From contig KE561067.1 in the NCBI GenBank assembly GCA_000442015.1, positions 1-64,000 on the forward strand: 64,000 nucleotides of DNA, in the 5' to 3' direction. The notes beneath the pieces were generated by a model, which made no database searches, had not been told where the DNA came from, and saw nothing but the letters and a program-made list of their open reading frames with translations. Of the stretch, positions 9,732 through 63,435 are shown piece after piece. The position numbers and the translations under genes were made by a program. Numbering within the stretch: the first letter of the stretch is position 1; every line of letters begins with the position of its first letter. Origin of the DNA: Rozella allomycis CSF55. Its lineage: Eukaryota.

Positions 9732-11039
9732 TTAGACAAACAAAAGTGCAAAGTTAAGCATTATTATTATAGAGGCCACCAAAATCGATGTTACAGTCAA
9801 CCAAGTGGGATTCTTGTTCAATCCCATCCATTCCTTCGACGAAGTAAAATAAACCAAAGGCACAACCGCAAAGGGAAGTTGTAAACTTAAGATCACTTGA
9901 CTCCAAACTAGTAAATTTTGAACTGATGCTTCCCCCATTGATAAAACAACAATTAATGCGGGAAGTATGGCACATGACCTTGTGATCAATCTTCTTATCC
10001 AAGGCTTTATTTTCATATCGAAAAAAGATTCAACGACAATCTGACCCGCCAATGTACCTGTCACTGAAGAGCTCTGACCCGCAAATAAAAGAGCAACAGA
10101 AAAAATTATAGAGGCAGATTTCCCGAGAGAGCCCTCAAGTAATGCGGCTGCTTCCTCTAATGAGTCAACCTTTCGATCTGTAAATGATGCAGAAGCCGTA
10201 ATTAAGATGGCACAGTTGATTAAAAAAGCGAAACATAAGGCAAAAATGGTACCCATGGTCAAATGCGTTACTTTTTCTTTCAAAGAAATGAAATGATGCC
10301 TTGCATTATTCTTTGCTACCATATCTGACTGTAAATACAGGTTATGAGGCATAACAGTTGCTCCAATAATTCCAAGTGAAATAAAAAGTGGATCCTTTTC
10401 CAAAATTTTTAAACTTGGCAAAAACCCCGCGACTATTTCGCTCAATTGGGGCTTCGCCATAAACATATCCGCCAAAAGGCAGGACGAAATTAGCAAAGCT
10501 GTTAATGTCAATACAATTTCAATTGTGCTATTCCCATTTGCATCCAGCCCCATTAAAAGAATGATTACGTCTGCGGAAGTTATAATAATGCCAAGCGAAA
10601 TAGGAATACCGAAAAGAAGTTTAAGGCCTATGGCCGATCCAATGACTTCTGCAAGATCACATGCAATTATAGCCACTTCGGCCACCAAATACATTGGTAT
10701 CCAAAGCCATTTTGTTTGGATGCTCTCTCTTGTCAATTTAGCCAGACCTCTGCTTGTAAATACACCTAACCTAATGCTCAAATATTGTAACACTATAGCT
10801 AAAATGTTTGATAAAAGCACAACATGAAGCAACTTGTACTTGAATTGAGATCCGGCTGCAATATCAGTGGACCAATTTCCAGGGTCCATATATCCAATTG
10901 AGATTATAAAACCTTGCCCAATGCACCGTAATACATTAATTAAAATTCTCATTCTACTTAAATGAGTATTATCCTCAAAATTAAATTCAGAATGGTCTGC
11001 ATCTTCGGATATAAGGGGTGTACCCGACAAAGCCGGCAT
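9732..11039 (-). CDS. NRAMP/SMF divalent metal transporter, intronless
   Basis: GYMDPGNW, DLAEVIGSA, GATVMPHNLYL, GQSSSVTGTLAGQIVVE, SQVILSLQLPFA. Confidence 0.95.
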   Translation of the reverse strand: MPALSGTPLISEDADHSEFNFEDNTHLSRMRILINVLRCIGQGFIISIGYMDPGNWSTDIAAGSQFKYKLLHVVLLSNILAIVLQYLSIRLGVFTSRGLAKLTRESIQTKWLWIPMYLVAEVAIIACDLAEVIGSAIGLKLLFGIPISLGIIITSADVIILLMGLDANGNSTIEIVLTLTALLISSCLLADMFMAKPQLSEIVAGFLPSLKILEKDPLFISLGIIGATVMPHNLYLQSDMVAKNNARHHFISLKEKVTHLTMGTIFALCFAFLINCAILITASASFTDRKVDSLEEAAALLEGSLGKSASIIFSVALLFAGQSSSVTGTLAGQIVVESFFDMKIKPWIRRLITRSCAILPALIVVLSMGEASVQNLLVWSQVILSLQLPFAVVPLVYFTSSKEWMGLNKNPTWLTVTSILVASIIIMLNFALLFV

Positions 11040-11199
11040 TTGTGTAAATTTAAGAATTTTACTAATTGATGTATGCAATATTACAAAGTTTAAAATGATT
11101 TAATCTAGATTATGTGCATTCTTGTTTTTGGAATAAAATATGAATATCTTAAAAGAAAAGTCCAGCCATTTATTTGTAGGAATTTTTGTGGGAGATTCA

Positions 11200-30443: not shown

Positions 30444-33400
30444 ATGGTTCTGTTTGGCGAACTTGACATTGTGTAAAAAGAGTATATTGTTGAGAATTAG
30501 TTACTCCACTGGTTCTATCACTAATAGTGTGCAGTCCCAGTACATTGATGAAAAGACGATGCTGGTGGCATTTGGTCATGTGCTCCATTTGTATGACACC
30601 GAAGAGAAGACAATTTTAAGCCAAATGTATGTATGTAAAGATGAAATAACTGCCTTGAGCGTCCATGCCAAAGAGGGAATTGTGGCATTCAGTACAAAAG
30701 TGGAGAGTGACGTCCATTTTCTCTCTTTACCATCACTAAAGGCGTCTCATGTCAAGAGTATAACAGGTATTTTGATTAAAGAAAACTTCATTTAGGTAAA
30801 TGTGAACGTTATTTCATGTTCATCAGGTAATGTTGATGAAAGCGTTCAAAAGGGTTGAGCGATCAAACAACAATATCCATTGACTTTCATGGTGATCGAA
30901 TGGTAGTTCTAGGCGGTGCACCCAGCTTTACTCTGAGTGTGATTGACTGGCGCCAAAACGTTATCCAATGTCAAATTTCGAATGGATCTCCGGCCAAGCA
31001 AGTCCAGTTTAATCCCATGGATAGCCATTACTTTATTACTTTTGGCTATAACCAGTTAAAGTTTTGGTGGATCAAGGAGGGCTATAGAAAGACCAGTTTG
31101 AAGAATGTAACCAAGAGCGAAAGTAGACAGCGAATGGAGATGTTGAATAGAGGAAATGAAGTTATATTCTCTAGGGTGTTGGGTAGAATGATGGATGTTG
31201 ATCCCGTGTGGAATGATAAGAATGAGGTTGTAGTGGTGTTGAATGATGGCAAGGTTATGCGTGTTGGTGTGAATTGTGAATGTGAGCAAATGGATGTCCG
31301 CCTTAATTGTGGAGTGTTAGCTGATTTTAAGTATACCATGAATGGATACGTTATGTGTTACAGAGTAACTTGATTTGATTGCAAGGATAGGATGGAACTG
31401 TTGAATTTCACAAGGAGAGAAAGGAAGCGGAAATAGAAAATGATAATTTTAGAGATTTGAATACAAAATTTGAGCACAAGATAAACCATGTAGTTTTTTC
31501 TCCGTCTCACGAGACCCTAGCAATTGTTGGAAGCAATGGAGAGTTGACAACAATAAACCGTGAAACTTTGAGCAAGGAAAAAGTAAAATAAAACTATATT
31601 ATGTGAAATAAAGCACTTGTTTAATGGAAATAAAGTGAAGAGCATGAGTTTAACGAGTGACCAAGAAATCCTGATGGTGGAAGATGATAAAAGATTGGTA
31701 GTGTTTAATGCAGAAACTAGACAGAGAAGAGGTGAGTAGTTAAAGGGGAGTATATGTAGAATTGTATAGAATCAAGGAAGAGAAAAGGGAAGTGATATGT
31801 GTGTCGCATCCGTTTTTTCGAATGATTGTTGTTGGTCATGAAAATGGGATAGAATTTCATCGGCGAATAGAAAAAGTTGAGAGTGAAGCAGAAAAAGAAG
31901 AGAGTGAGTTGAATGAAGAAACGATGATATTTGAATTCGAGTTGAAAAAGGTCAAGAGGATGAGATTTGACCCTATGGGCCGCCACCTAGTTGTTCATAG
32001 TGAGAGTGGGTTGAGTGTGTTTACGGTTGGCCTGAATGGAATAAATTTTGGCGGCTATTTGAAGAGCAAGGGGAGTATCCAAAGTTTGAGTTTCTATTTA
32101 GTGGAAGAGGAGGTAATTGAGTTTATTAAAAGGAAAAGTTTTCGTATTTGATTGTGCTATGCCACATTGGCCATGAAAGTTTAATTTTCCGGTTCATGTT
32201 TCCGATCGAGGTGATGAATTTCAAGCCTGTTGCGACGACAGAGTATTATATACCCAAGGAGGTTATACCGGTAAGTGAATATTGAGGGTATGAAAGTGTT
32301 GTTCGTACCGGGTTGATTGTGTTGTGAGTGATGTGTTTGCGATACCGAATAGTTTAACGAATGGCAAAGAAGTGATTTATTTGATTGTTGGGGAGAGCAT
32401 TAAAGGTAAGGAATGGAGTGAGAGTTGAAAGGGATGAATTTGCTGTCTAAAAAGCCAACTGATAATGCGAATGAAATACCGACGCTGATATCGAATGCGT
32501 TTAACAATTTGAATGGGCATTTGAAGAGGGCGAAATTTTACCAGAGTTTGAATAGAGAGTGGATGATAACGTTTGGGATGGATGGGAATGTTATGATCCG
32601 GGGTATTTTGGATGTAGAAAAATACCAAATGATTCAAACGAATGAAGGATTCAAGGATGGGATTGCTGAAATAATGATATCGCCAGATTTCAAGTGGCTT
32701 TGTGTTTTGGGGAATGATGGAATATTGAGGTTGATTGAGTGGAAATATACAACGAATGGCAAGAGATTGGCCATGACAGTAGCAGAAGATGTGAAACAAT
32801 TTTACTTGAATCAATTTGAGCATTTTAATAAAATAGAAAAGAATTTTTCATTAATAAAATTTGAGAAAAAGATTAAGGAAATTTCAGAAATAGATCAATC
32901 AGAGACCCTTGTTAAAAGAGAGAATTTGCGAGATAGATTGAGAGAGATTAAAGAAAAGATAAAGCAGATAATAGAGAATAATGGGAGGGTAGATGAGAGT
33001 GAGAGATTGGAGATTGAGGAGATGATAATAGATGAAGAGAAGAGGGAGCGATTGACGTTGCAGGGGATTGAGCAAGTTGATCGAATGAAGAGTGAAATTG
33101 AGAATGAAAATTTGAAGCAAGAAATAATTTTTAGAAAATTGAAATCTGAATTTTGGGATTCAATGAGAGTGAAAGGGAAATCAATTAAATCGTTTGATCT
33201 AAAAATAGATTTGAGAAATTATCCAATCTGTGAAGAAAGAGAAGAAGAAGATTTGATTAAAAAGATTATCAATCTGAGGAAATGTCAACTAGAGTTTGAA
33301 AGGGGGAAAGAGAGAGTGAAAGGTGAAGAGAGAGTGAAAGGTGAAGAGAAAGAGAAAGAGAAGGAGAGAGTGAAGGGTGAAGACAAGCAAAGTTATTTCA

Positions 33401-36262
33401 ATTCAATCTGCAACTTTATTCAAGAGGAAGATAAAGAAGTAACTAGAGAAGGTAAGGAAGTAGTTAGAGAAGGGAGAGAAGGGAGAGAGACTACTTCAAC
33501 ACATACTCCTTCTTCTACCACTACTTCTTCTAATACTTCAACTTCAACTCCTTTTACCACTTCAACCCCCTCTTACCCATCTAACCCCCCTACTACCCCC
33601 ATCAATTCGCTGCTGTTTCATCCCTTCGAGTTGAATTCAATTGAGAAACAAAAAATACAAATTTTGCTAATTAAAGAATTAATTAAAACAATAAAAATAA
33701 AATTCAATTCAAAATTTACAAATTTGTATCAAATGAAAAAAGATGAAATTTCCAAAATAGAAGAAAGAAATTCGCGAATTTTAGAAATAGTGAAAGAATT
33801 AGAGATGAAAGATTATTTAATAAAAAATTATTTTCTGGATGTTGATGAGAACCCAGAATTGTTGTTTCAAAATGATTTAAACAAAAATTCTAAAAAAGAA
33901 ACAATTTCTGAAATTTCCAAAATAGAAGAATGGAAGAAAAGGGGAATAAATTTGATGATGAATGGACGATTGGAATCATTTCAGAATACAGAAAATGAAA
34001 ATAATAAAATTCCAGAATTTATTTCTAAAAATAAATCAGAATTAACAGAAGAAGAAAAGAAGCTATTAAAAGAATATGAAAAGAAACAAAACACAATTAA
34101 AGAAGAATTAGAGAAACATAAAAAAGCATTGGAAACTGAATTGAAGAAAATTTCATCTTTTATTTCTGAAATTGCAATAAATTTTGATCTTAGATTGAAT
34201 CTATTTTTACAAGAAAAAATTTTCACAGATAATCTAATTCTATTTTTAGAACTTGAAATTTCTAAATTACAGAAATCAATTGTATTTAAAAAAGAAAAGG
34301 AAGAAAAAGAAGAAATATTAATTGAAAGGTTGAATGATTTGAAAATAGAAAAGATGAATTGTTTGAATGAGATTCCAGAGATTAAGAAAGATTTAGAGCA
34401 TTGCAGAGAAGGATATGAGAGTTGTTTGAAGAGAGAAAAGGAATTTGAAAAGCAATTTAAAAAAGAGTTTCATCAATATGAATTTTATTACGATTCACTT
34501 TTAAGATTATTCAAAAAGAGGGAATACACAAAGGTAAAGAGATTGAGTTAAAAGGTGATGTAGGTAATGTAAGAGTTAAAGTCTTATAATAGGTAATTCA
34601 ACTATAGTAGTCTTTCACTGCAGGTAATCCCCCCTTTAAGTCTCCAACTGCAGGTAATACCCCCTTCAAGTTTAACTTCTCAAACTTTAACTTCTCAAAA
34701 TAGTTATTTAAAGAATCCATTTAATTCTTTAAATGGAATTGAATCTCTTCTGCCAATTAATGAAAGTGACATCCCAGAAGGTACCTTCTAACCCTTTTAA
34801 AGACCAGGATTGAATGTAGAGATTTGGAATAAATTTCTAGATTTCAGAGAAAAAAAGATTAGATTGGAGCAAGAAGTGAAAATAGCAAATAAAAAATTTA
34901 ATGAAATGCAAAATCTAGTGAATCAAATTGTTTCAGAATCTGAAAAGATAAAAATAGAAACAGAAAAAGTTTCTGCAGATTTCATCAAATTTAAAGAAGC
35001 TTCTTTTCTCTTTTCTTTCAACGTTGAAGTTTTATGCAAACTCAAACAAGGCCAAGTTGAAGTTTCTCAAGCCCCTGTCCTAACTGACTATTCTGATGCA
35101 TGTCTCATCAACAGAAATATTGTAGAGAAATTAAATTCTCAAATTTTGCAAATTGCTTCTCAAAAAGTGGAAGCTCTAAATGAGATTAAAAATTACAGAA
35201 AAGGTAATTAGAAGGGATTTGAGGTGAGATAGGTAATCAGGGAGTTGAAAGGGTGAGATAGGTAACAGAGGGATATTTAAGGTGAGATAGGTAACAGAGA
35301 GTTGAAAGGGTGAGATAGGTAACAAAGGGATTTAGGGTGAGATAGGTACGTTAAAACTAGTAGGATAGAGATAGGTACTTCAATCTGTGGCTTATATATT
35401 AGGTACTCGGATCTGTGGCTTATATATTAGGTACTCGGATCTGTGGCTTATGAAATAGGTACTTGGATCTAAAACTATTTCATATAGGTACCTTCTAGTC
35501 TCTCCCCTTTATCTAGGTAAATACATTCAAAATCCTTAAAAAGGGATTCATTATTTGGAGTGGGAAAATAAAGTTTTGGACTTTCAACAGGAAAATTTAA
35601 TACTGAAAACAAGAGACATTCAACTGTTGAGAGTTTCTAAACAAATGCAAGATTTCATTCGCTCTGGTGACGATGGAAAACATTCAAACGAAATTTCATT
35701 AATTGAAAAAAGATTTGAACACGCAGAAAAAGTATTTTCTTTTCTTTTATTATTATAGAATCATCAACACAAGATTAATGAAAAGAAAAGATTAATTAAA
35801 TCGTTGAAATTGAAAATTAATCAAATTTCTTCTTCAAATGTTGATCTAAGCCACAAGTTGACAAATCTAGACTTGCTAGTCAAAGAGAGGCAACTAAGTG
35901 ATGGGGGAGATAGAAGTGGAGTTGAGAGGGTGGGAGATAGAAGTGGAAGTGAGAGGGTGGAAGATGATCATCGAGATAACGAGAAAGAGAAAGATGGAAT
36001 TGAGTTTAATAGGGTTGATAATGGTCATGGTGATATCTCTAATCAATCCATGGACACAAGTAATTCTCAATGTCATTCTCTAGTAGATAATCTAAAACAC
36101 GTCCAGATTTATAGCAGATTGAAAGAAAAAATTTCAGCTCAATCAGACGATCTTTTCATTCTCAAACAAGAAGTAGAAAAATTAAAGTCTAAATCTATTC
36201 CCTTGTTTGGCAGAATCAATTCTTCAAACATCAACCCCTGGTCGTCATTCGTAAAGAAATAA
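30444..36262 (+). CDS. CFAP43: Cilia- and flagella-associated protein 43 (WD40 + coiled coil), with three compound introns
   Basis: WD40 N-half (PSFTLSVIDW, VQFNP); SEFWDSMRVKG; PEGLN..W..R..KI..E; LKQGQVEV..DYSDACLINR; RKG|IHYLEWE..RDIQLLRVSK. Confidence 0.85.
30767..30852 (+). other. Compound intron: 3 tandem GT-AG units (29, 31, 26 nt)
   Basis: 30767-30795, 30796-30826, 30827-30852; only complete removal restores the frame (SITG|LSDQ). Confidence 0.8.
34534..34653 (+). other. Compound intron: 3-4 tandem GT-AG units (30, 29, 31, 30 nt)
   Basis: 34534-34563, 34564-34592, 34593-34623, 34624-34653; units 1-3 contain in-frame stops, unit 4 is in frame and could be exonic. Confidence 0.75.
35204..35543 (+). 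repeat. Compound intron: tandem array of 12 GT-AG units of 27-29 nt
   Basis: Every unit begins GTA and ends AG; removing all 340 nt gives AAA G|GG ATT CAT (RKGIHYLEWE). Confidence 0.88.
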
Positions 36263-36314: not shown

Positions 36315-37994
36315 TTATTGATTGAATTTAGTCAGATCGGTGGCATAAATAGGATAAGAAAGTGTTTCCTGAATACGCAATTCTAGAGTAGGATTTTTGG
36401 CCGGGTCAACATTAAAAAGAGGCACCGTTGCAAGTACATCCATCAACTCTAGTGAATTCCTATTTAAACCACGAAACTTGGCTAGCATTTCCTCCTTGAT
36501 CTCTCTAGGCGCATCGGCTAAATACGGATTAATTTCAGTATTCTTCAATTCTGTCGTTGACTCGATAACACTGGCTAGAATTTCTTTCAGGGAAATAATA
36601 TAGAAATTGTACTCACCCAATGTTGGATGTTCTACAGTGAGTAATGGCTTTGCATATGTTTTGGCTTTGCTTTTATATAATCTCACATAATAATCGTATG
36701 CCCTATCAAATCCTTCCACAATTTGGGTTTTTCGCTCCAATGCATGCATGCTTCCAAAAAATAAACGATCGATCGCATACTCCAACAATAGTTCTCCAGC
36801 TCGTCTAATGTTAAATGGCTTCATTTTATCGATTTTGTTTACGTAAATTTCTCTCACGGCATTGTATTCGGTCAGAGCAGCGTCAACATCCCTGGACAAT
36901 AATGTAACATTCCTTGCCGCACCTTGTATTTGATCTTTAATAAAATTAAACCTGAATACTTCTCCCTTCAACTTTTTAGTTCTTTCATTTTCAGCAAATT
37001 CTCGTTCCAGAGAATGAATCTGTTCCAAAGTTTTGGGGCCAGAAATCTCTACATCTAATGATTCAGGAGTTGAGCCTTCAATTTTAGCAAATATTTCTTG
37101 AAAATCAGTAGACAAATTTGACGAGTTCTCCAATATTATCCTCGCAGATTTCTTCAACTCTTCCCTCTCCTCACGATAACTAATTACCTCGGCCTTTAGT
37201 CTTTCATAATTCTCGGTAGCCTCAATCATAGTCTTTGTAGAAAATTTTCGTCCTCTATTGGCTACACAATTTTCATGGATTTTAGAATAAGTTTCTCGCA
37301 TAAATCTCTGCCTCGACTCTTCCAAACTGTAGCGCTTTTTTCGACCATTAATCTTTTCTGTGGCCACAGAATGTCGATAAAACATAAACTGGACTGCATT
37401 TAAAAAGTTTTCAGCTTCAGGAGCGACGGCCAATATTCCCGATTTAAACTCGTTGATCTTTTCAGCTTCTTTGGATTCATCGATTAGAATATTGTCAGCA
37501 AAAGTGAAAACAATAAATCCTCTTCCGTATCCCTCTTCGGTTATCAAGGATTTCACAAAGTTGATCAACTTGACTCGCTCAGCATCAGACAGTCTTCCTA
37601 CAGGCGACAACACAAAAAATGCATCGATTCCTTGTTTTAAAAGTACTGGGACATTATCAGATATTTGTGTGGATATTTGATCAAATTCATTCTCGTTATC
37701 AGTAAACCCAGGTGTATCGACAATATTCAAAGATCGTGTACCGTTGGTGCACAAATAATTGGCACATTCTTTTGTGCACAAACTTTCACTAGTTGAAGTC
37801 TTGGCAATTTCTTCCTCATCTCCAGAATCCAAATCACATAAATTATTCAAGACATTAACCAAAGTCGACTTTCCAGTTCCATAGTAGCCAAGCAAAAGGA
37901 GGTCCAGTGGTCTATTGCACATATCTTGAACAGGTGGTGCAACTATTACAGCGATGGAAGAGAAAACTAGAGTGAGACAAAAGAAAATTTTCAT
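36315..37994 (-). CDS. Secreted AIG1/GIMAP-like P-loop GTPase with coiled coil and C-terminal helical domain; intronless
   Basis: Signal peptide; LLLGYYGTGKSTLVNVL, SLCTKEC, IVDTPGFTD, GRLSDAE, IVFTFAD. Confidence 0.8.
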   Translation of the reverse strand: MKIFFCLTLVFSSIAVIVAPPVQDMCNRPLDLLLLGYYGTGKSTLVNVLNNLCDLDSGDEEEIAKTSTSESLCTKECANYLCTNGTRSLNIVDTPGFTDNENEFDQISTQISDNVPVLLKQGIDAFFVLSPVGRLSDAERVKLINFVKSLITEEGYGRGFIVFTFADNILIDESKEAEKINEFKSGILAVAPEAENFLNAVQFMFYRHSVATEKINGRKKRYSLEESRQRFMRETYSKIHENCVANRGRKFSTKTMIEATENYERLKAEVISYREEREELKKSARIILENSSNLSTDFQEIFAKIEGSTPESLDVEISGPKTLEQIHSLEREFAENERTKKLKGEVFRFNFIKDQIQGAARNVTLLSRDVDAALTEYNAVREIYVNKIDKMKPFNIRRAGELLLEYAIDRLFFGSMHALERKTQIVEGFDRAYDYYVRLYKSKAKTYAKPLLTVEHPTLGEYNFYIISLKEILASVIESTTELKNTEINPYLADAPREIKEEMLAKFRGLNRNSLELMDVLATVPLFNVDPAKNPTLELRIQETLSYPIYATDLTKFNQ

Positions 37995-38296
37995 CTCAAG
38001 TTCTCAACCAGGGTCAAATTTTCGTGTATTAGATCTACGGACTCTTAGAGCAATTGGGCCAAAAATTCATTTCCAAATTAAAACATTAAACAAATAAAAT
38101 AGTTTAACTATTTTAAAATGTTTAAACTTAAGGGTTTTTTTATCTCTTCGTCAGCTATGTGCACATTGCGCAGTTTTCAATACACTTAATGATGTTGGTA
38201 TTTGATTCGATTTGTTATACCAAAGAGCAGAAAAAGGCAGTTTCTCGATCAATTCCAAGTATCTTTCAACTATGTACTATCCCCTTGCCGCTTAAG

Positions 38297-39281: not shown

Positions 39282-40437
39282 ATGTCGTTTAATCAAATCA
39301 AATATCGTAAGCTTGTTGATATTGTAAGTTTTTTCAAAGCACCAATAGATTTTGCAGTTGCATATGGTTCCGCGGTATTTCCTCAATCACAACGCCAGAA
39401 AAAAAACACGGTAGCAAAATTTATTGTCATGTACAAGATGTATGATTTTATTTTTGGAGTTAAATCACCATTGGAATTCCATTCAGAAAATATGAAACAA
39501 AATCCGGACCATTATTCTTCTCTTAAACTATTTGGCCCTAAAATTGTCTCATGCATTCAAGAAAAGATACCAGCCCATATTTATTACAACACTTTAATAC
39601 ACATAAATGGAAATCTTATAAAGTATGGAGTTGTCTCATTGAATGATTTGTCCAATGACTTAAAGAACTGGAATACAATGTTCCTAGCCGGAAGAATGCA
39701 TAAACCTATTTCCATTATTAAATCGAATTCCGATTTAGACAAACTTCTATCTAGAAATTTGGAGTATGCAGTTTATACTTCTCTACTCCTATTACCGAAA
39801 TCTTTTACTTTAAAAGATTTGTATTTAGCGATTACTTCATTATCATATATTGGGGACCCAAGAAAAGGTATTGCTGAAAATCCAAATAAGATTGAAAACA
39901 TTGTTAACCACCAATTCGATTGTTTCAATACCATGTATTTACCAGNAACACACTTTTATCTAGAAATTTGGAGTACGCCGTTTATACTTCTCTACTTTTA
40001 TTACCGAAATCTTTTACATTAAAAGATTTGTATTTAACGATTACTTCATTATCATACATTGGGGACCCAAGAAAAGACATTGCAGAAAATCCAAATAAGA
40101 TTGCAAACATTGTTAACCACCAATTCGATTGTTTCAATACCATGTATTTACCAGTGCTAGAAAAATTGGCAATCATTGAGAAAGGTATTGTAACAAGGAC
40201 GATCCCATTTGAAACCATTATTGAAAACTTGTCACCGCATTTGAAATTGAAACTAAATGGCAATTATTCAAAACCTAATGTAATTAAGAGTAATAATAAT
40301 TATTTTACTTAATAGACTTGAAAGATATAGTAAACATGCCGTCCATTTTCCAGGCCGCAAAAGGTTTGCTAACTGCCGGAGTTTATAAATCTGCAATTTA
40401 TTCGTTCAGAAAATTGAAAAAATCTTTTAATAAATGA
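39282..40437 (+). CDS. TAM41: Mitochondrial CDP-DAG synthase Tam41 (internal ~200-nt duplication around N at 39946)
   Basis: FAVAYGSAVFPQ, MYDFIFGV, IKYGVV..DLKNWNTMFLAGRMHKP, LSYIGDPR..ENPNKIENIV, QAAKGLLTAG. Confidence 0.93.
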
Positions 40438-56807: not shown

Positions 56808-57085
56808 CTGATTAAGTCAATAAATATTTTTTGAATTCTAAAAGGCATTTTAATGACATATTCATCGATATACTTAAAGGGTAATATCAGTGAGATTGAT
56901 CCCCTAATCCCTTCACCTTGGCACTTGATTTCGGCATTAAATATCCATTTAACTATTGGACAATGCAAGAAGTTTTCACCACTACATCGACTTATTATCT
57001 ATTAATATAATCCTTGCATTTGAGAACATATTCTTATAAATAGCAATTGATCACTATTTCTAAAAATAGATTTAAGTGCTTCATN

Positions 57086-58054
57086 ATGTCGATTTTTTCT
57101 TTTCTTTTCGCAGTTATATTTAGCTTTTGCTCAGGTACGATGAGCCCTTCCGATGCCAATAAACTTTTGGCTTTGACAAATCAACACCGCGCATCTCTCG
57201 GGCTTAACGCCCTGCAGCTAGATTCCAAATTAACAGCTGCCGCTGAAGGACATTCCAATGCTCAAGCCCAAGCTAAAACTATGGGACATTTTGGTTTTGA
57301 GAATAGGATGGCTACCTGTGGCTTTCCAGGATCCGATTGGGCTGAAAACGTGGGAATGACACAAAGACGCCCAATCGATGTCGCTTTCATGCACCAAATG
57401 TGGTTAGATTCACCAGGACATCGGCGAAATATTGAAAAGGTTGGTCTCACACATGTAGGATTTGGGTTAGCAGCCAATCCCGATGGGGATTATTTGTTCT
57501 ACACAGAATTCTTTTCTGCAATATCTTCAGGATCAAAGTACAAGGGTACGCAACCTCAAGTTCAACAACCGTCAAGTTATCAAGGATCTCCATCAAATGG
57601 CCATCGTTCATTATACGACACTTCTACTGGCGCAGGCGCACCTACAACGAAGAAAGGATGTAAGAACTCAATCAAATCAGGAGCAGGTATTCCTCAAATT
57701 CCAAATGCTTCAACTCAAAATACGTCAACTCCAAATACTTCAACTCCAAATACGTCAACGCCAAATACATCAACACAAAATACGGGAACACAATCCCCTG
57801 ATGGAAATTCAGGAGATCAACATTCTGCGCCTTCTTTGGAGTCATTGATTAAAGACACTCTTGGCGATCTTATGAATGGAGATTATTCAAATTCGCAAAC
57901 CCAAGATTCAAGCGATCCAAACGCACATCAAACCCAATACTCCAAAAAGACATACAAGATTAATAATTCCGGTCAAGGAGGCCCTAATGTTACTGTGTAC
58001 CAGTTCTTTATTATATCAAATGGTGGTAAAGACTCGGGAGAGGTGAAAAAGTAA
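57086..58054 (+). CDS. Secreted CAP (SCP/YkwD-type) protein with low-complexity tail
   Basis: LTNQHRASLGL..LDSKLTAAAEGHS..MGH..AENVG..WLDSPGHRRNI..VGFG; NTSTP repeats. Confidence 0.9.
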   Translation: MSIFSFLFAVIFSFCSGTMSPSDANKLLALTNQHRASLGLNALQLDSKLTAAAEGHSNAQAQAKTMGHFGFENRMATCGFPGSDWAENVGMTQRRPIDVAFMHQMWLDSPGHRRNIEKVGLTHVGFGLAANPDGDYLFYTEFFSAISSGSKYKGTQPQVQQPSSYQGSPSNGHRSLYDTSTGAGAPTTKKGCKNSIKSGAGIPQIPNASTQNTSTPNTSTPNTSTPNTSTQNTGTQSPDGNSGDQHSAPSLESLIKDTLGDLMNGDYSNSQTQDSSDPNAHQTQYSKKTYKINNSGQGGPNVTVYQFFIISNGGKDSGEVKK

Positions 58055-58156: not shown

Positions 58157-61100
58157 ATGGTAAAGGTACTCAATGTAGCTGAAAAACCTTCTATGGCGAA
58201 AGCCATAGCAGATCATTTATCAAACCATCAATTTAGCACTGTATACTATAAGATAATAATATTTGTAGAGAAAAGGCGTAGACAAGTATTGCAACAATTT
58301 TGATTTTATTGTGTACCAGCAAAGAAACCAGATGCAGTGTGAGATGACAATGACGAGTGTTCTTGGACATGTAATGGAATATGCGTTTCCAGACGAGACG
58401 AAGAGTTGGACAGGCTATCCAGTTGAAAATATGTTTTCCATACCGATAGTGAAAAAAGTTCATCCAGTAGAGGCATGATAGATTAATAATAGGACAAGGA
58501 GAGAATAAAGGTTAATTTGGAGAGGGAGAGTCGAAAAGCAGAGTGGCTAATTATTTGGACTGATTGTGACAGAGAAGGCGAGAATATTGGGATGGAAATT
58601 TCAGAAATATGCAGACGGGCGAATCCAAGACTATTAGTGTATAGAGCCAGATTTTCTGTTGTCAATGGAAGGTTTGAATGATTTTGTTTGAAGAGTAGGG
58701 AGTTGAAGAATTCATTTGAGAATCTGTCGCAGATAGATGTGAATATGAGTATGGCGGTTGATACGAGACAAGAGCTTGATTTAAGGATTGGGGCTGCCTT
58801 TACGCGCCTTCAAACGATAAATTTACAAAGCAAATTTAAGAGTTTAGAAAAGACTGTGATATCGTATGGCCCATGCCAATTTCCAACGCTTGGATTTATT
58901 GTTGATCAGTATAGAAAAAATAAAGATTTTGTTTCTGAATGTTTTTGGAGTTTGACGGCAACGTTGGAAAAGGAAAATAAGAATTGCGTTTGTTCATGGG
59001 CCAGGGGAAGCATATTTGATGAAAGAGTTGTTGAACTTTATAAAACGATTTGCCAAAGAAGCCCGATAGCCAGAATAATGAAAGTGGATGAAAAGGCTAC
59101 AAAGAAATAGTAATAGAGATGATTGAATGAAATAGTCGACCCTTGCCATTGACAACTGTTGAATTTCAAAAGTTTGGCACGCGATATTTAAAGATGAGTT
59201 CGCACAAACTGATGAATGTAAGTTGATTCTATTTTATTGAAAGATTGCAGAGAAATTGTATAACAGGGGTATAATTAGTTATCCTAGAACAGAAACAGAT
59301 GTATTTGAGAATGGAATTGATTTGAAGGGGTTGATTCAAAAACATTGCGATAACGAAATTTGGGGAAATTATTGCCAGGGTTTAATGCAGGGGTCATTTA
59401 TGTTCCCAAGAAAAGGAAAACACAACGACAAGGCGCATCCCCCAATCCATCCAACGATGAATGTAAATAATTTGGAAGGAGAAGAATTTAAAGTTTATGA
59501 ATTTATAACGAGAAGGTAAAATAGAATAATTGAATGGGAAAGATTTTTAGCTTGTTGCTCAAAGGATGCGTTAGGCGTTGAAACAAAAGTTGAAATAAAA
59601 ATTGCTGATGAAACGTTTGCATGTTCGGGGCTTTTGATTACGGAAAGAAATTATTTAGAAATTTACATTTATGATAAATGGAATGAAAATAGTTTACCAA
59701 AATTAATTGTTGGTGAAGAAATCAAAGCAAAAATTTCAAAAACGAATGGAAAGACTACTGCGCCACCATTGTTAACTGAAGGCGATTTGATTGGATTGAT
59801 GGACAAGAATGGGATTGGCACTGATGCAACAATTCATGATCACATTAAGAAAATTCAAGATAGAAATTATGCGAAAAAGACTTCAAAGGGTTTCATTCCA
59901 ACGCCACTTGGTCTTTCTCTAGTTGAAGGCTACGACGCTTACAATTTTGATCATTCTTTAACAAAGCCCCAATTAAGAGCTTTAATGGAATCTGAAATGA
60001 ACAATGTTTGTCAAGGTTTAAAATCTAAAAATCAAGTTTTAGAACAGGGAATCAATTTATACTTTAATTTATTCATTAAAACTAAAAATTCTATCAATTT
60101 GTTATTGCAGGTAAAATGTTATGACTTTCTAAAAATAGGTATGGCTTAGTGTTAATCTATTTTTAGAAAGTTTCAGAAAATTTGAATCAAGAAATTTCAG
60201 AAGATGACCACGTTGAGATAAATCGACATTCAAATTATGTTCAACCGTCAAACAATTCAAATTCAAATTATGTTCAACCGTCAAACTCAAATTCAAGTTC
60301 AAGTTATGTTCAACCGTCAAATTCTTTTTCTTCAAACACATCAAATACTTTTTCTTCAAACTCTTCTAACTCNGTTCAACCGTCAAACAATTCAACTTCC
60401 AACTCATCAAACTCCTTTAACCCTTCAAACACATCAAACTCATATAACCCTTCAAATCCATCGCTGGAACAAAATACAAATTCCCCTCCTTGTAGCTGCG
60501 GTTTAAATTCATTTCTCTTCACAGTCAAAAAACAAGGCCCCAATCTTGGCAAAAAATTCTATTCTTGCTCAAAACCTCAAAATGAAAAATGCGATTTTTT
60601 TCAGTGGCTTGATCCTCCAATAGATCAGTCTGCGCCACAAAGATCTGTAGATGATTTTGGCTCTTCAATATCTTGTAACTGCAATAAAATAGTCCAATTA
60701 AAAACTGTCCAGAAATCTGGCCCAAATTATGGGAAAAAGTTTTATTCTTGTTCTACTTGCGATTTCTTTCTGTGGAGTCTCAACGACTCTTCCCACAGTC
60801 AATCCATTCAAGAGGCAATCAAATGCGATTGTGGGTTGGAATCTGTTTCTTTCACGTGTCAAAAGCCTCCAAATAATGGAAGAAAATTTTTTAAATGTCC
60901 AAAACAAAGTGGAATGAAATGTTCGTTTTTTCAATGGGCTGATGAACATTCAACTACAAGGGTTGATCATAGTACAAGAGTTAATTACAATTCAAGAGAT
61001 AGCAGCAATACATGGGATAACGCTAATACATGGGATAACAACAATTCAAGGGTTAATCAATATAATTCAAGGTCTAATCATAATTCTTCTAATACAAATT

Positions 61101-61229: not shown

Positions 61230-61399
61230 TTTATCATATAAACACATTTAAAACTCATTATATAATTAAATTCTATTGTTAAGGTATAAGACGCTATAAC
61301 ACTTCAATGGGATCTCGATCTCTTCAGCCTATATATATCACCGATGTCTATAAATAACTATCTCGATATATTTAGACGAACGAGAAGTCCCTGTTACAT

Positions 61400-61960
61400 A
61401 TGTATCGTTGTATCTTTCTTTTGTTTTCTGCATTCGTATTTGACTATTGCTCAGCTACTATGAGCTCTGCCGACGCAAATAAGCTCTTGGCTTTGACAAA
61501 TCAGCATCGTGCTTCCATCGGTTTAAATGCATTGCAATTAGATGGCAAATTAACCGCTGCCGCAGAAGGACATTCCATTGCTCAAGCTCAAACAAAAACT
61601 ATGAGCCATAATGGGCTTGACAGTCGAATAGCAAACTGCGGGTTTCCAGGAATCGTTTGGGCTGAAAATGTTGGCATGTCAGAAAACAAGCCAATAAATG
61701 TCGCTGAAATGCATAAAGGCTGGTTGAATTCACCGAAACATCGAGCAAATATTGAAAAGGCGGGTCTCACTCATGTAGGATTCGGTTTGGCTGCCAATGG
61801 AAATTTTTTGTACTATACTGAATTTTTTGGTGGAGTCGCGTCGGGTTCTAAATACAGTGGCACAAAACCACAAGGTCGACCATCAAACAGTCAAAGATCT
61901 TCTTCGACTGGTCGCCGCTCATTGTCCGATCAGTTAGCAATCAACAGGTTCAAACGTTGA
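61400..61960 (+). CDS. Secreted CAP protein, short paralog
   Basis: Signal peptide plus CAP domain nearly identical to 62362-63435. Confidence 0.9.
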   Translation: MYRCIFLLFSAFVFDYCSATMSSADANKLLALTNQHRASIGLNALQLDGKLTAAAEGHSIAQAQTKTMSHNGLDSRIANCGFPGIVWAENVGMSENKPINVAEMHKGWLNSPKHRANIEKAGLTHVGFGLAANGNFLYYTEFFGGVASGSKYSGTKPQGRPSNSQRSSSTGRRSLSDQLAINRFKR

Positions 61961-62361
61961 TCACTGTATCTGGATGGGTTATTTCTCTCCATCAAAGAAG
62001 AGATGTAATATATAATAAACCCTTTTAAATGTCAATCAATAGTTAAAAGTTGTAATAACCGCGGTTTCGTTTATTTTCGTAAAAAATGATATATTGCGTC
62101 CAACGTGTCATGAAATATGCTCTGAACTCTATATAATTTTGGATCCAGCCTGGGTTTAGGGAGTTCATTGAGTGATGAATCTTCCAGTTCGAGATTGTCA
62201 TGTATGATGTTCTTGGGACCACTTTGATAAATGTAGCAGCCAAATAAAATGTAGCCTGCTTCAATTGATCTAAACATTCTGCCAATTGAATACATTTTTA
62301 TCATCTTTGTCTATAAATAGCATCGTACGTTATATCCATGCAGGAGAAGTCCCTGTTTCAT

Positions 62362-63435
62362 ATGTATCGTTGTATATTTCTTTTTTGTGTATTTGTATTT
62401 AAATATTGCTCAGCTACTATGAGCTCTGCCGACGCTAATAAACTCTTGGCTTTGACAAATCAACATCGCGCGTCAATAGGCTTAAATGCGCTGCAGCTGG
62501 ATAGCAAATTAACCGCTGCTGCAGAAGGACATTCAGTTACTCAAGCTCAAACAAAAACTATGAGCCACAATGGGTTTGACAATCGAGTCGCAACGTGTGG
62601 GTTTCCAGGAAAAGTATGGGCTGAAAACGTGGGTATGACAGAAAATAAGCCGATAAATGTCGCTGAAATGCATCAAGGCTGGCTGAATTCACCGAAGCAT
62701 CGCGAAAATATTGAAAAGGTGGGCCTCACTCATGTGGGATTTGGTTTGGCTGCCAACGGAAATTTATTGTATTATACACAATTTTTTGGTGGAACTTCAT
62801 CAGGGTCGAACTACAGTGGAGCAAAACCACAAAGTCAGCAACCATCAAGTTATCAAGGATCTCCTTCAAATGGTCATCGTGCCCTGTCTGATAATTTCGC
62901 AGGCAATAATGGCGGGTCTGCGGCTAATAATTCGCCCGCATTTAATAGTGAACCTACTGGCAATAACATGCCGACTAATAGTGGCGATAACATACCAATG
63001 AAGGGTATCAGACCTAAGCAATCAAAGTCGCGTGGAAGTGGCATTCCTCAAGTCCAAAATCAAAATGTACCGAATAGTTCGGAGGAAAATGTTCCATCTT
63101 TTCAAGGAAATTCAAGTGGAAATCAAGCTATGCCTTCTATGCCTTCTATGGATGCCTTTTTCGGAAACATATTTGGTGGACTTATGAACGGACAACAGCC
63201 AAATTCTCAAACTCAGTATTCCAGTGATCCAAACGCTCACCAAACCCAATATTCAAGCGATCCAAACACCAAACAAACCCAATCAAAAGGAAATGGTTCA
63301 CCGACATCCGGTTCTCAACCATTTAATTTACCAGGACCAAACAACTTACAATCTAATTGCGCCAAGGGTGCACCTTCCAATGGANTAAACTTTAACTCTT
63401 TTAGAGAAAATATTTTATTTCAGTTTTTTGACTAG
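62362..63435 (+). CDS. Secreted CAP protein with long N/S/Q/P-rich tail (3' end broken by N at 63385)
   Basis: CAP domain; tail shares QQPSSYQGSPSNGHR and SSDPNAHQTQYS with the 57086 paralog. Confidence 0.88.
   Translation: MYRCIFLFCVFVFKYCSATMSSADANKLLALTNQHRASIGLNALQLDSKLTAAAEGHSVTQAQTKTMSHNGFDNRVATCGFPGKVWAENVGMTENKPINVAEMHQGWLNSPKHRENIEKVGLTHVGFGLAANGNLLYYTQFFGGTSSGSNYSGAKPQSQQPSSYQGSPSNGHRALSDNFAGNNGGSAANNSPAFNSEPTGNNMPTNSGDNIPMKGIRPKQSKSRGSGIPQVQNQNVPNSSEENVPSFQGNSSGNQAMPSMPSMDAFFGNIFGGLMNGQQPNSQTQYSSDPNAHQTQYSSDPNTKQTQSKGNGSPTSGSQPFNLPGPNNLQSNCAKGAPSNGXNFNSFRENILFQFFD

Follow-up and report, generated by a model that had tools for sequence, protein, structure and literature searches.

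The window analysed here is a stretch of 64,000 nucleotides (nt) from Rozella allomycis CSF55 (assembly GCA_000442015.1, contig KE561067.1, positions 1 to 64,000 of the forward strand), and all coordinates below are positions within it. Its plus strand carries a homologue of the cilia/flagella protein CFAP43, recognized by matches to the Pfam profile CC_Cfap43 on the exons that flank the site studied. At this site (34534–34653), the sequence and a script listing of it gave four GTAA..AG units lying head to tail between two coding exons. We regard the arrangement as a putative concatemer of spliceosomal mini-introns, the last of which bears signs of having arisen by tandem duplication across an intron–exon border. 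Three further arrays of the same kind were detected in the window.

Anatomy of the CFAP43 locus

The features around the four-unit array, with the donor and acceptor scores of its units, are as follows.

32422 to 34533, plus strand: large CFAP43 exon, an open frame of 704 codons whose true 5′ end is not fixed
34534 to 34563, plus strand: unit 1, 30 nt, GTAAAG..GTAG, scores 5.7 and 3.0
34564 to 34592, plus strand: unit 2, 29 nt, GTAATG..ATAG, scores 6.9 and 4.9
34593 to 34623, plus strand: unit 3, 31 nt, GTAATT..CTGCAG, scores 7.6 and −0.7
34624 to 34653, plus strand: unit 4, 30 nt, GTAATC..CTGCAG, scores 6.3 and −0.7
34654 to 34780, plus strand: exon B, 127 nt, starting with the donor-like GTAATA and encoding a linker and the conserved NPF...IPEG stretch
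34668 to 34697, plus strand: 15-nt tandem duplication in exon B, two copies identical at 14 of 15 positions, found by Tandem Repeats Finder (TRF; 34671–34699) and by a repeat search
34781 to 34807, plus strand: ordinary single intron, 27 nt, phase 1, joining the frames that begin at 34597 and 34801
34808 to 35203, plus strand: exon C, CC_Cfap43 profile positions 570–702 (frame 34801–35205)
35544 to 35731, plus strand: exon D, CC_Cfap43 profile positions 701–767 (frame from 35540)

The open frame 32422–34533 matched CC_Cfap43 with E=5e-63, its residues 395–701 falling on profile positions 197–522, and an exhaustive search with this exon against representative proteins returned 725 matches at E ≤0.001. 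The nearest CFAP43 relatives among 51 matches came from chytrid fungi, at 41–43% identity. Exon B alone gave no Pfam match and was found in no protein in a search limited to proteins of 113–2000 residues. The best match of the large exon was a Rozella model of 653 amino acids (P0172), near-identical but not identical, that ends before the arrays; compared with positions 30900–33330, it differs at scattered residues and omits some of the small exons. There is thus a second allele or assembly of this organism, and gene models at this locus are unreliable. Five other short relatives (P0193, P0233, P0278, P0312 and P0297) stop or change character a few residues past the same point, a hint that they too have an intron at this position. 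A single-exon gene on the minus strand (36318–38003), tail to tail with CFAP43, encodes a 562-amino-acid AIG1/septin-like GTPase with a long coiled-coil tail. The GC skew between 30000 and 36000 is strongly positive, reaching +0.40 over the CFAP43 gene.

The four units total 120 nt and are separated by zero-length exons. The last codon of the upstream exon is complete at 34533, and the reading frame is preserved by removal of 34534–34653, just as it is if the exon resumes at 34624 instead of 34654. An earlier note on this DNA, made from its letters, had given unit lengths of 30, 29, 31 and 30 nt, and we obtained the same boundaries. It also described a donor-like exon start with no AG 26–31 nt further on, and indeed the AGs that follow 34654 would close stretches of 17 nt (34670), 50 nt (34703) and 60 nt (34713); the first two are out of frame, as that note said of 34703, and the third, which it left unmentioned, is in frame. 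Kept alone in the message, unit 1 brings an in-frame stop at its nt 15, and units 2 and 3 each shift the frame and run into a stop. Only unit 4 has a length that is a multiple of three and lacks a stop codon; the earlier note had recorded it as in frame, and our frame check adds that it is free of stops.

The earlier note knew a single site. That site is real, but the window holds arrays of 3, 4, 12 and 2 units, and the additional ones are listed here together with a weaker candidate.

30767 to 30852, plus strand: 3-unit array in CFAP43 (29, 31 and 26 nt), in-frame tiling, phase 1
35204 to 35543, plus strand: 12-unit array in CFAP43 (29, 29, 29, 28, 27, 29, 28, 28, 28, 29, 29 and 27 nt), all units GTA..AG
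60111 to 60166, plus strand: 2-unit array (28 and 28 nt) in the gene for a topoisomerase with a GRF zinc finger
1091 to 1148: two-unit candidate whose tiling joins frames, with no homology check behind it

The Pfam profile is continuous over the 12-unit array, exon C ending at position 702 and exon D starting at 701; given that it runs on without a gap, all 340 nt of 35204–35543 are non-coding. Two sub-families are visible within this array, units 1–5 (71–92% alike) and units 7–9 (74–87%), and TRF reports periods of 29, 57 and 28. To judge by their similarity, units 1–5 and 7–9 arose through recent copying of whole units or of units in pairs. The 12-unit array is larger and clearer than the four-unit site. 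The interiors of its units 1–5 contain 38–48% G, compared with 11% in single introns, and the CFAP43 introns are purine-rich.

Intron length and chance expectation

We defined candidate introns as GTA..AG stretches that join in frame two open frames of at least 50 codons, with TGA..GA as the control signal. In the 26–29 nt class, 50 GTA..AG candidates stood against 10 with the control signal. Across the 64-kb window, no excess was seen in the 34–60 nt class, with 72 candidates versus 101 for the control. The catalogue of single introns comprises 46, all of them 26–31 nt long with 24–33 nt permitted, and the 21 units of the four arrays fall in the same range, starting with GT(A) and ending with AG, which bears out the ruler distance invoked in the earlier note. 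All 12 single introns with a length of 3n contain an in-frame stop; this follows from the method of discovery and is not evidence.

The arrangement is far from what chance would give. AGGTA pairs at a spacing of 27–31 nt number 18 on the plus strand and 0 on the minus strand. Runs of at least four GT..AG units (24–33 nt each) had 11 start points, at two loci, whereas 0.14 were expected per shuffled window (50 shuffles). On the minus strand of the window, no GTA..AG tilings joining frames were found, and control signals gave no tilings of more than three units anywhere in it.

Short introns in this organism have been noted before. Excerpts of the literature mention in passing R. allomycis introns of ~30 nt (PMC6349667) and put the lowest median intron length at 29 bp for a fungal set that includes Rozella, in a passage that does not name the species bearing it (PMC8042348). 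In another excerpt, R. allomycis is one of three species with an RPL7 paralogue lacking both the intron and its small nucleolar RNA (snoRNA) (PMC8476143).

Splice signals at the unit junctions

All 17 internal junctions read AG|GTA, and at 10 of them the adjoining units are no more than 65% alike in their interiors, 65% being the 95th percentile for unrelated single introns. Unit donor scores range from 4.0 to 7.6, close to the 5th–95th percentiles of single introns (4.1–7.8); the donor of unit 4 scores 6.3 against a single-intron median of 6.5. Most unit acceptors also score within the single-intron range, whose 5th percentile is 2.7. In the array at 30767, the acceptor of the second unit lies under this percentile (1.3) and that of the third equals it (2.7). 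Units 3 and 4 of the four-unit array have an identical acceptor heptamer. Retained alone, 20 of the 21 units lead to a frameshift or a stop, unit 4 being the sole one that is silent. A dispersed intron family was not evident in the window: the best cross-site scores were 8 and 7, against 6 for several unrelated pairs, in a comparison whose single-intron set had been built with a faulty frame rule.

The linker in CFAP43 orthologues

Where exon B begins was assessed from the linker, defined as the stretch of residues bounded by two conserved motifs, KKR and NPF. Three alternative spliced forms were aligned with 30 orthologues and one translated locus (L001), making 31 orthologues. L001, the only match of a metagenome scan with exon C, is a CFAP43 homologue, 52% identical in a match over query residues 71–131, and a single uninterrupted frame with no intron runs across its matching region. 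The linker measures 13–24 residues in the 31 orthologues, with a median of 16. In the Rozella gene, excision of the four units would give a linker of 24 residues, retention of unit 4 would give 34, and a cut extending to 34713 would give 4. Since that last cut leaves 4 residues against 13–24, the exon start is coding and not a fifth intron, as the earlier note had held. Exon B thus appears to start at 34654 or at 34624 and not later, and removal of four units fits best, although the linker is variable and this evidence is for that reason supportive rather than decisive. Removal of the arrays restores both the frame and the continuity of the homologous protein: frames are joined, the profile passes from 702 to 701 and the linker comes to 24 residues. 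The 15-nt duplication at 34668–34697 adds five residues to the same linker, a region of repeated slippage.

A direct repeat at the border of unit 4

In the tandem-duplication model of intron gain, a segment containing AGGT is duplicated and the result is a new intron. Two tandem copies of such a segment are present at the 3′ end of the four-unit array.

34609 to 34638, plus strand: repeat copy 1 (repeat family D1), spanning the junction of units 3 and 4
34639 to 34668, plus strand: repeat copy 2, spanning the junction of unit 4 and the exon, identical to copy 1 at 25 of 30 positions

An independent repeat search returned the same direct repeat, in register, as 30 nt, 83% identical, at a spacing of 30. 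Each copy consists of 15 nt before and 15 nt after an AG|GT junction, so that the repeat period equals the unit length and AG|GT is present in both copies. Unit 4 is accordingly a hybrid: its 5′ half corresponds to the start of exon B, and its 3′ half, acceptor heptamer included, corresponds to the end of unit 3. The resemblance of unit 4 to the exon start had been pointed out in the earlier note; ungapped, 17 of the first 20 nt are identical. The global alignment score of the two is 12, a value reached by 1 of 5000 shuffles, and the match is the best among the window's 176 30-mers starting with GTAAT, the runner-up scoring 8. A partial third copy comes next, and short matching words at the block edges suggest slippage.

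By its sequence, this repeat is the footprint that the tandem-duplication model predicts. The copies differ at 5 of 30 positions, and the event is therefore not very recent, which tempers the claim of the earlier note that the intron had been caught growing: the duplication footprint is present, but its copies are only 83% identical. The duplication of an AG|GT-containing ~30-mer, also proposed there, is supported by the 30-nt repeat across AG|GT, yet a copied exon border accounts for unit 4 only, and the recent duplications in the 12-unit array involve whole internal units. Given that the sub-families of the 12-unit array are whole-unit copies, growth would mostly consist of duplication of complete units within an array, and the copying of the exon border in unit 4 is a special case that turns exon into intron.

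Interpretation of the arrays

With moderate confidence, we read the arrays as concatenated spliceosomal mini-introns, each of which would be spliced on its own. The anatomy, the frames, the repeat and the fit to orthologues are seen in the DNA, and from them we infer all that is said here about RNA. Each unit, having its own GTA donor and an AG acceptor at ruler distance, would be removed singly and in any order, and each removal would leave either an AG|GT junction or the final exon–exon join. Because every junction is AG|GT, all removal paths would lead to the same mRNA. The arrays would expand and shrink through tandem duplication or slippage, and since one repeat period is one intron long, gaining or losing copies would leave the message unchanged. 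Unit 4 would have been born from a 30-nt tandem duplication spanning the old intron–exon border, with a first part taken from the former exon and the final 15 nt copied from the 3′ end of unit 3. We think it quite probable that unit 4 is mostly spliced out, because its signals match those of unit 3, which are needed for gene function. If retained, it would add a harmless 10-residue repeat in a variable linker, and its alternative use would give an optional 10-residue insert. A wider proposal, which we put forward tentatively, is that the Rozella spliceosome may be efficient only at ~26–31 nt, so that longer gaps would be built as concatemers of mini-introns, prone to slippage and able to recruit the edge of an exon; unit 4, on this view, would be a newborn intron still resembling exon.

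Several observations weigh against individually spliced mini-introns. Seven of the 17 junctions lie between recently duplicated units, where they are kept by descent and are uninformative. The acceptors of units 3 and 4, at −0.7, fall under the 5th percentile of 2.7. The interior of unit 4 is 45% C, compared with 11% in single introns; its composition is more exon-like than intron-like, and it could be poorly spliced. It is also the one unit that could stay in the message silently. Its open frame would fit a coding repeat equally well. The intron ruler rests on one 64-kb window, and the length ceiling may not be absolute, since the RPL7 excerpt (PMC8476143) implies that the other copy of that gene may keep a longer, snoRNA-bearing intron. 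Finally, a single gene, CFAP43, holds three of the four clear arrays, a concentration for which we have no explanation.

Under one alternative, each array is a single long intron, of 120 nt here and 340 nt next door, removed in one step, and the internal AG|GT sites are inert, minisatellite-like copies of intron ends. Descent would account in this way for the junctions among units 1–5 and 7–9 of the 12-unit array (71–92% alike), and the RPL7 case in the same excerpt (PMC8476143) suggests that Rozella may hold at least one longer snoRNA-bearing intron. It does not account for the 10 of 17 junctions at which the units are no more alike than unrelated introns, where AG|GTA and the 26–31 nt spacing are nonetheless kept; within one long intron, these sites and distances would have had no reason to survive divergence. 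The 34–60 nt class shows no excess (72 against 101 in the control), and a spliceosome would be expected to use strong internal donors and acceptors at the preferred distance. We consider this alternative unlikely.

We also give only a small chance to the possibility that unit 4 is a translated 10-residue tandem repeat. Unit 3 would then splice to 34623, the exon would start 30 nt earlier, the array would have three units, and the duplication would be an ordinary in-frame coding event in a low-complexity linker. The linker does hold another small tandem duplication, of 15 nt, and unit 4 is a multiple of three, stop-free and C-rich in its interior (45%), with a peptide like the next ten residues; the tiling 34534–34623 joins the frames too. 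The resulting linker of 34 residues, however, exceeds those of all 31 orthologues (13–24). In addition, unit 4 has a typical donor (6.3), the acceptor of unit 3 and ruler length, so a spliceosome that removes unit 3 should also see unit 4.

The reverse direction of change seems improbable to us. In that case a fifth unit would have lost its AG and, being in frame and stop-free, have become the opening 30 nt of exon B, and the array would be eroding at its 3′ end. The 15-nt duplication at 34668–34697 straddles the supposed old junction, and two acceptors would have to be lost. In its 3′ half, unit 4 resembles the end of unit 3 and not the exon, as a junction-spanning duplication predicts, and growth is the more parsimonious course. 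Erosion would nevertheless fit the full-strength donor retained at the exon start (6.4), the alignment of that start with unit 4 along most of its length, and the 14 residues left in the linker without these 30 nt, which lie inside the orthologue range. That the repeats are an assembly artefact is hardly credible: at three of the nine N positions (541, 19750 and 30112) the preceding 19–30 nt do recur right after the N, but none of the nine falls inside the arrays or within 34534–34700, the two copies of the repeat have 5 mismatches in 30 positions, unlike an unmerged contig overlap, and the array units are mostly dissimilar.

Comparison with known splicing systems

Recursive splicing at ratchet points, or zero-nucleotide exons, is described for long Drosophila and vertebrate introns (PMC8605326), and a fungal case is the BOT1 intron of Cryptococcus neoformans, split into 210 and 165 nt (bioRxiv 10.1101/224170). 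The Rozella arrays resemble these systems in their logic, scaled to whole mini-introns of ~28 nt. As far as the excerpts describe them, both have juxtaposed AG|GT inside one mRNA gap, where partial removal regenerates or would regenerate a usable splice site, and both have exons that start with a functional-looking donor, as Rozella exon B does. At all 17 junctions, AG|GT is juxtaposed, with a donor-like sequence downstream. In contrast, the recursive segments described in those excerpts run from hundreds to tens of thousands of nt with few ratchet points, and flies need a cryptic downstream exon. The Rozella arrays total 56–340 nt and none is part of a kilobase-long intron; every segment would be a complete 26–31-nt intron, with up to 12 in a row. 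They likely owe their form to a short length optimum and not to any difficulty in removing very long introns.

The new piece in the four-unit array fits the tandem-duplication model in that a short direct repeat carries AG|GT, the donor comes from the former exon and the acceptor is copied, and splicing of the piece would restore the message. Intron gain through repeat expansion is described for the Cryptococcus gene CNN00420 (PMC2395259). According to the available part of that account, its repeat consists of exon plus intron and adds coding repeats, whereas the Rozella period equals one intron and the mRNA would gain nothing. Rozella unit 4 also adjoins an existing intron and is not isolated.

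Genomes with ultra-short introns offer a second comparison, and the microsporidia are among them. Introns of ~25 nt occur in Paramecium and Nyctotherus (PMC5014332), and ultra-short introns are reported in myxozoans and Dicyema (PMC13644364). These share with Rozella, in the excerpts concerned, a narrow length class below 35 nt and minimal signals. The same excerpts do not mention head-to-tail arrays, and PMC13644364 contains none of the words 'tandem', 'recursive' or 'duplication'. Stwintrons of filamentous fungi, which are complex intervening sequences of more than one U2 intron removed stepwise (PMC6616335, PMC8469720), are alike in holding several introns in one gap. As presented in excerpts of those papers, they are nested, one intron interrupting a splice signal of the other, so that the order of removal is fixed. 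The Rozella units, by contrast, abut, each has its own complete GT..AG, and their removal would be order-independent. In the literature covered on short introns, recursive splicing and Rozella, to which the original Rozella genome paper does not belong, we found no description of head-to-tail mini-intron arrays. The components are known, and their combination appears to be new.

The origin of new spliceosomal introns is a long-standing open question, and the tandem-duplication route has, to our knowledge, few clear examples in nature. The four-unit site offers a footprint of this route at single-nucleotide resolution. The narrow intron length sharpens the prediction of the model, as a ~30-nt duplication across AG|GT would yield a self-sufficient intron at once. 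If the arrays are concatemers, copy number should vary among isolates with no change in the protein, partly spliced RNAs should differ in whole units, and the birth and death of introns would be self-propagating, nearly cost-free and observable within one living species. Splicing unit by unit would mean that a strict length optimum is met through modular introns, and it would extend recursive splicing from the giant introns of animals to the smallest known in the fungal lineage. One-step splicing would also be informative, since a spliceosome of tiny introns would then tolerate 340 nt full of decoy sites. In either case, gene predictors are likely to mis-model such loci.

Other features of the window

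The window has a G+C content of ~35% and 9 N positions. The repeats flanking the Ns at 541, 19750 and 30112 have the look of contig overlaps left unmerged and bridged by an N, and several of the TRF tandem repeats are for this reason probably assembly artefacts. The single N at 39946 lies in a 209-nt repeat (39739–40154).

Typical fungal genes in the window include those for a FolB-HPPK-pterin-binding folate protein, Pex13, Atg27 and Tam41; the pterin-binding exon has only bacterial look-alikes in the protein atlas. An Nramp gene on the minus strand (9735–11099) has, aside from a self-match to a Rozella allomycis CSF55 protein (100% identical over 96% of its length), best matches that are only bacterial or metagenomic, at ~47–51% identity, from Verrucomicrobia, Planctomycetes, Paenibacillus and others. 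This gene may have been acquired from bacteria. Three genes for CAP/PR-1-type cysteine-rich secretory proteins lie on the plus strand within 6.5 kb (57044–58051, 61376–61957 and 62317–63432). They may encode secreted parasite proteins, and their tails contain short tandem repeats (TRF at 57700 and 63208).

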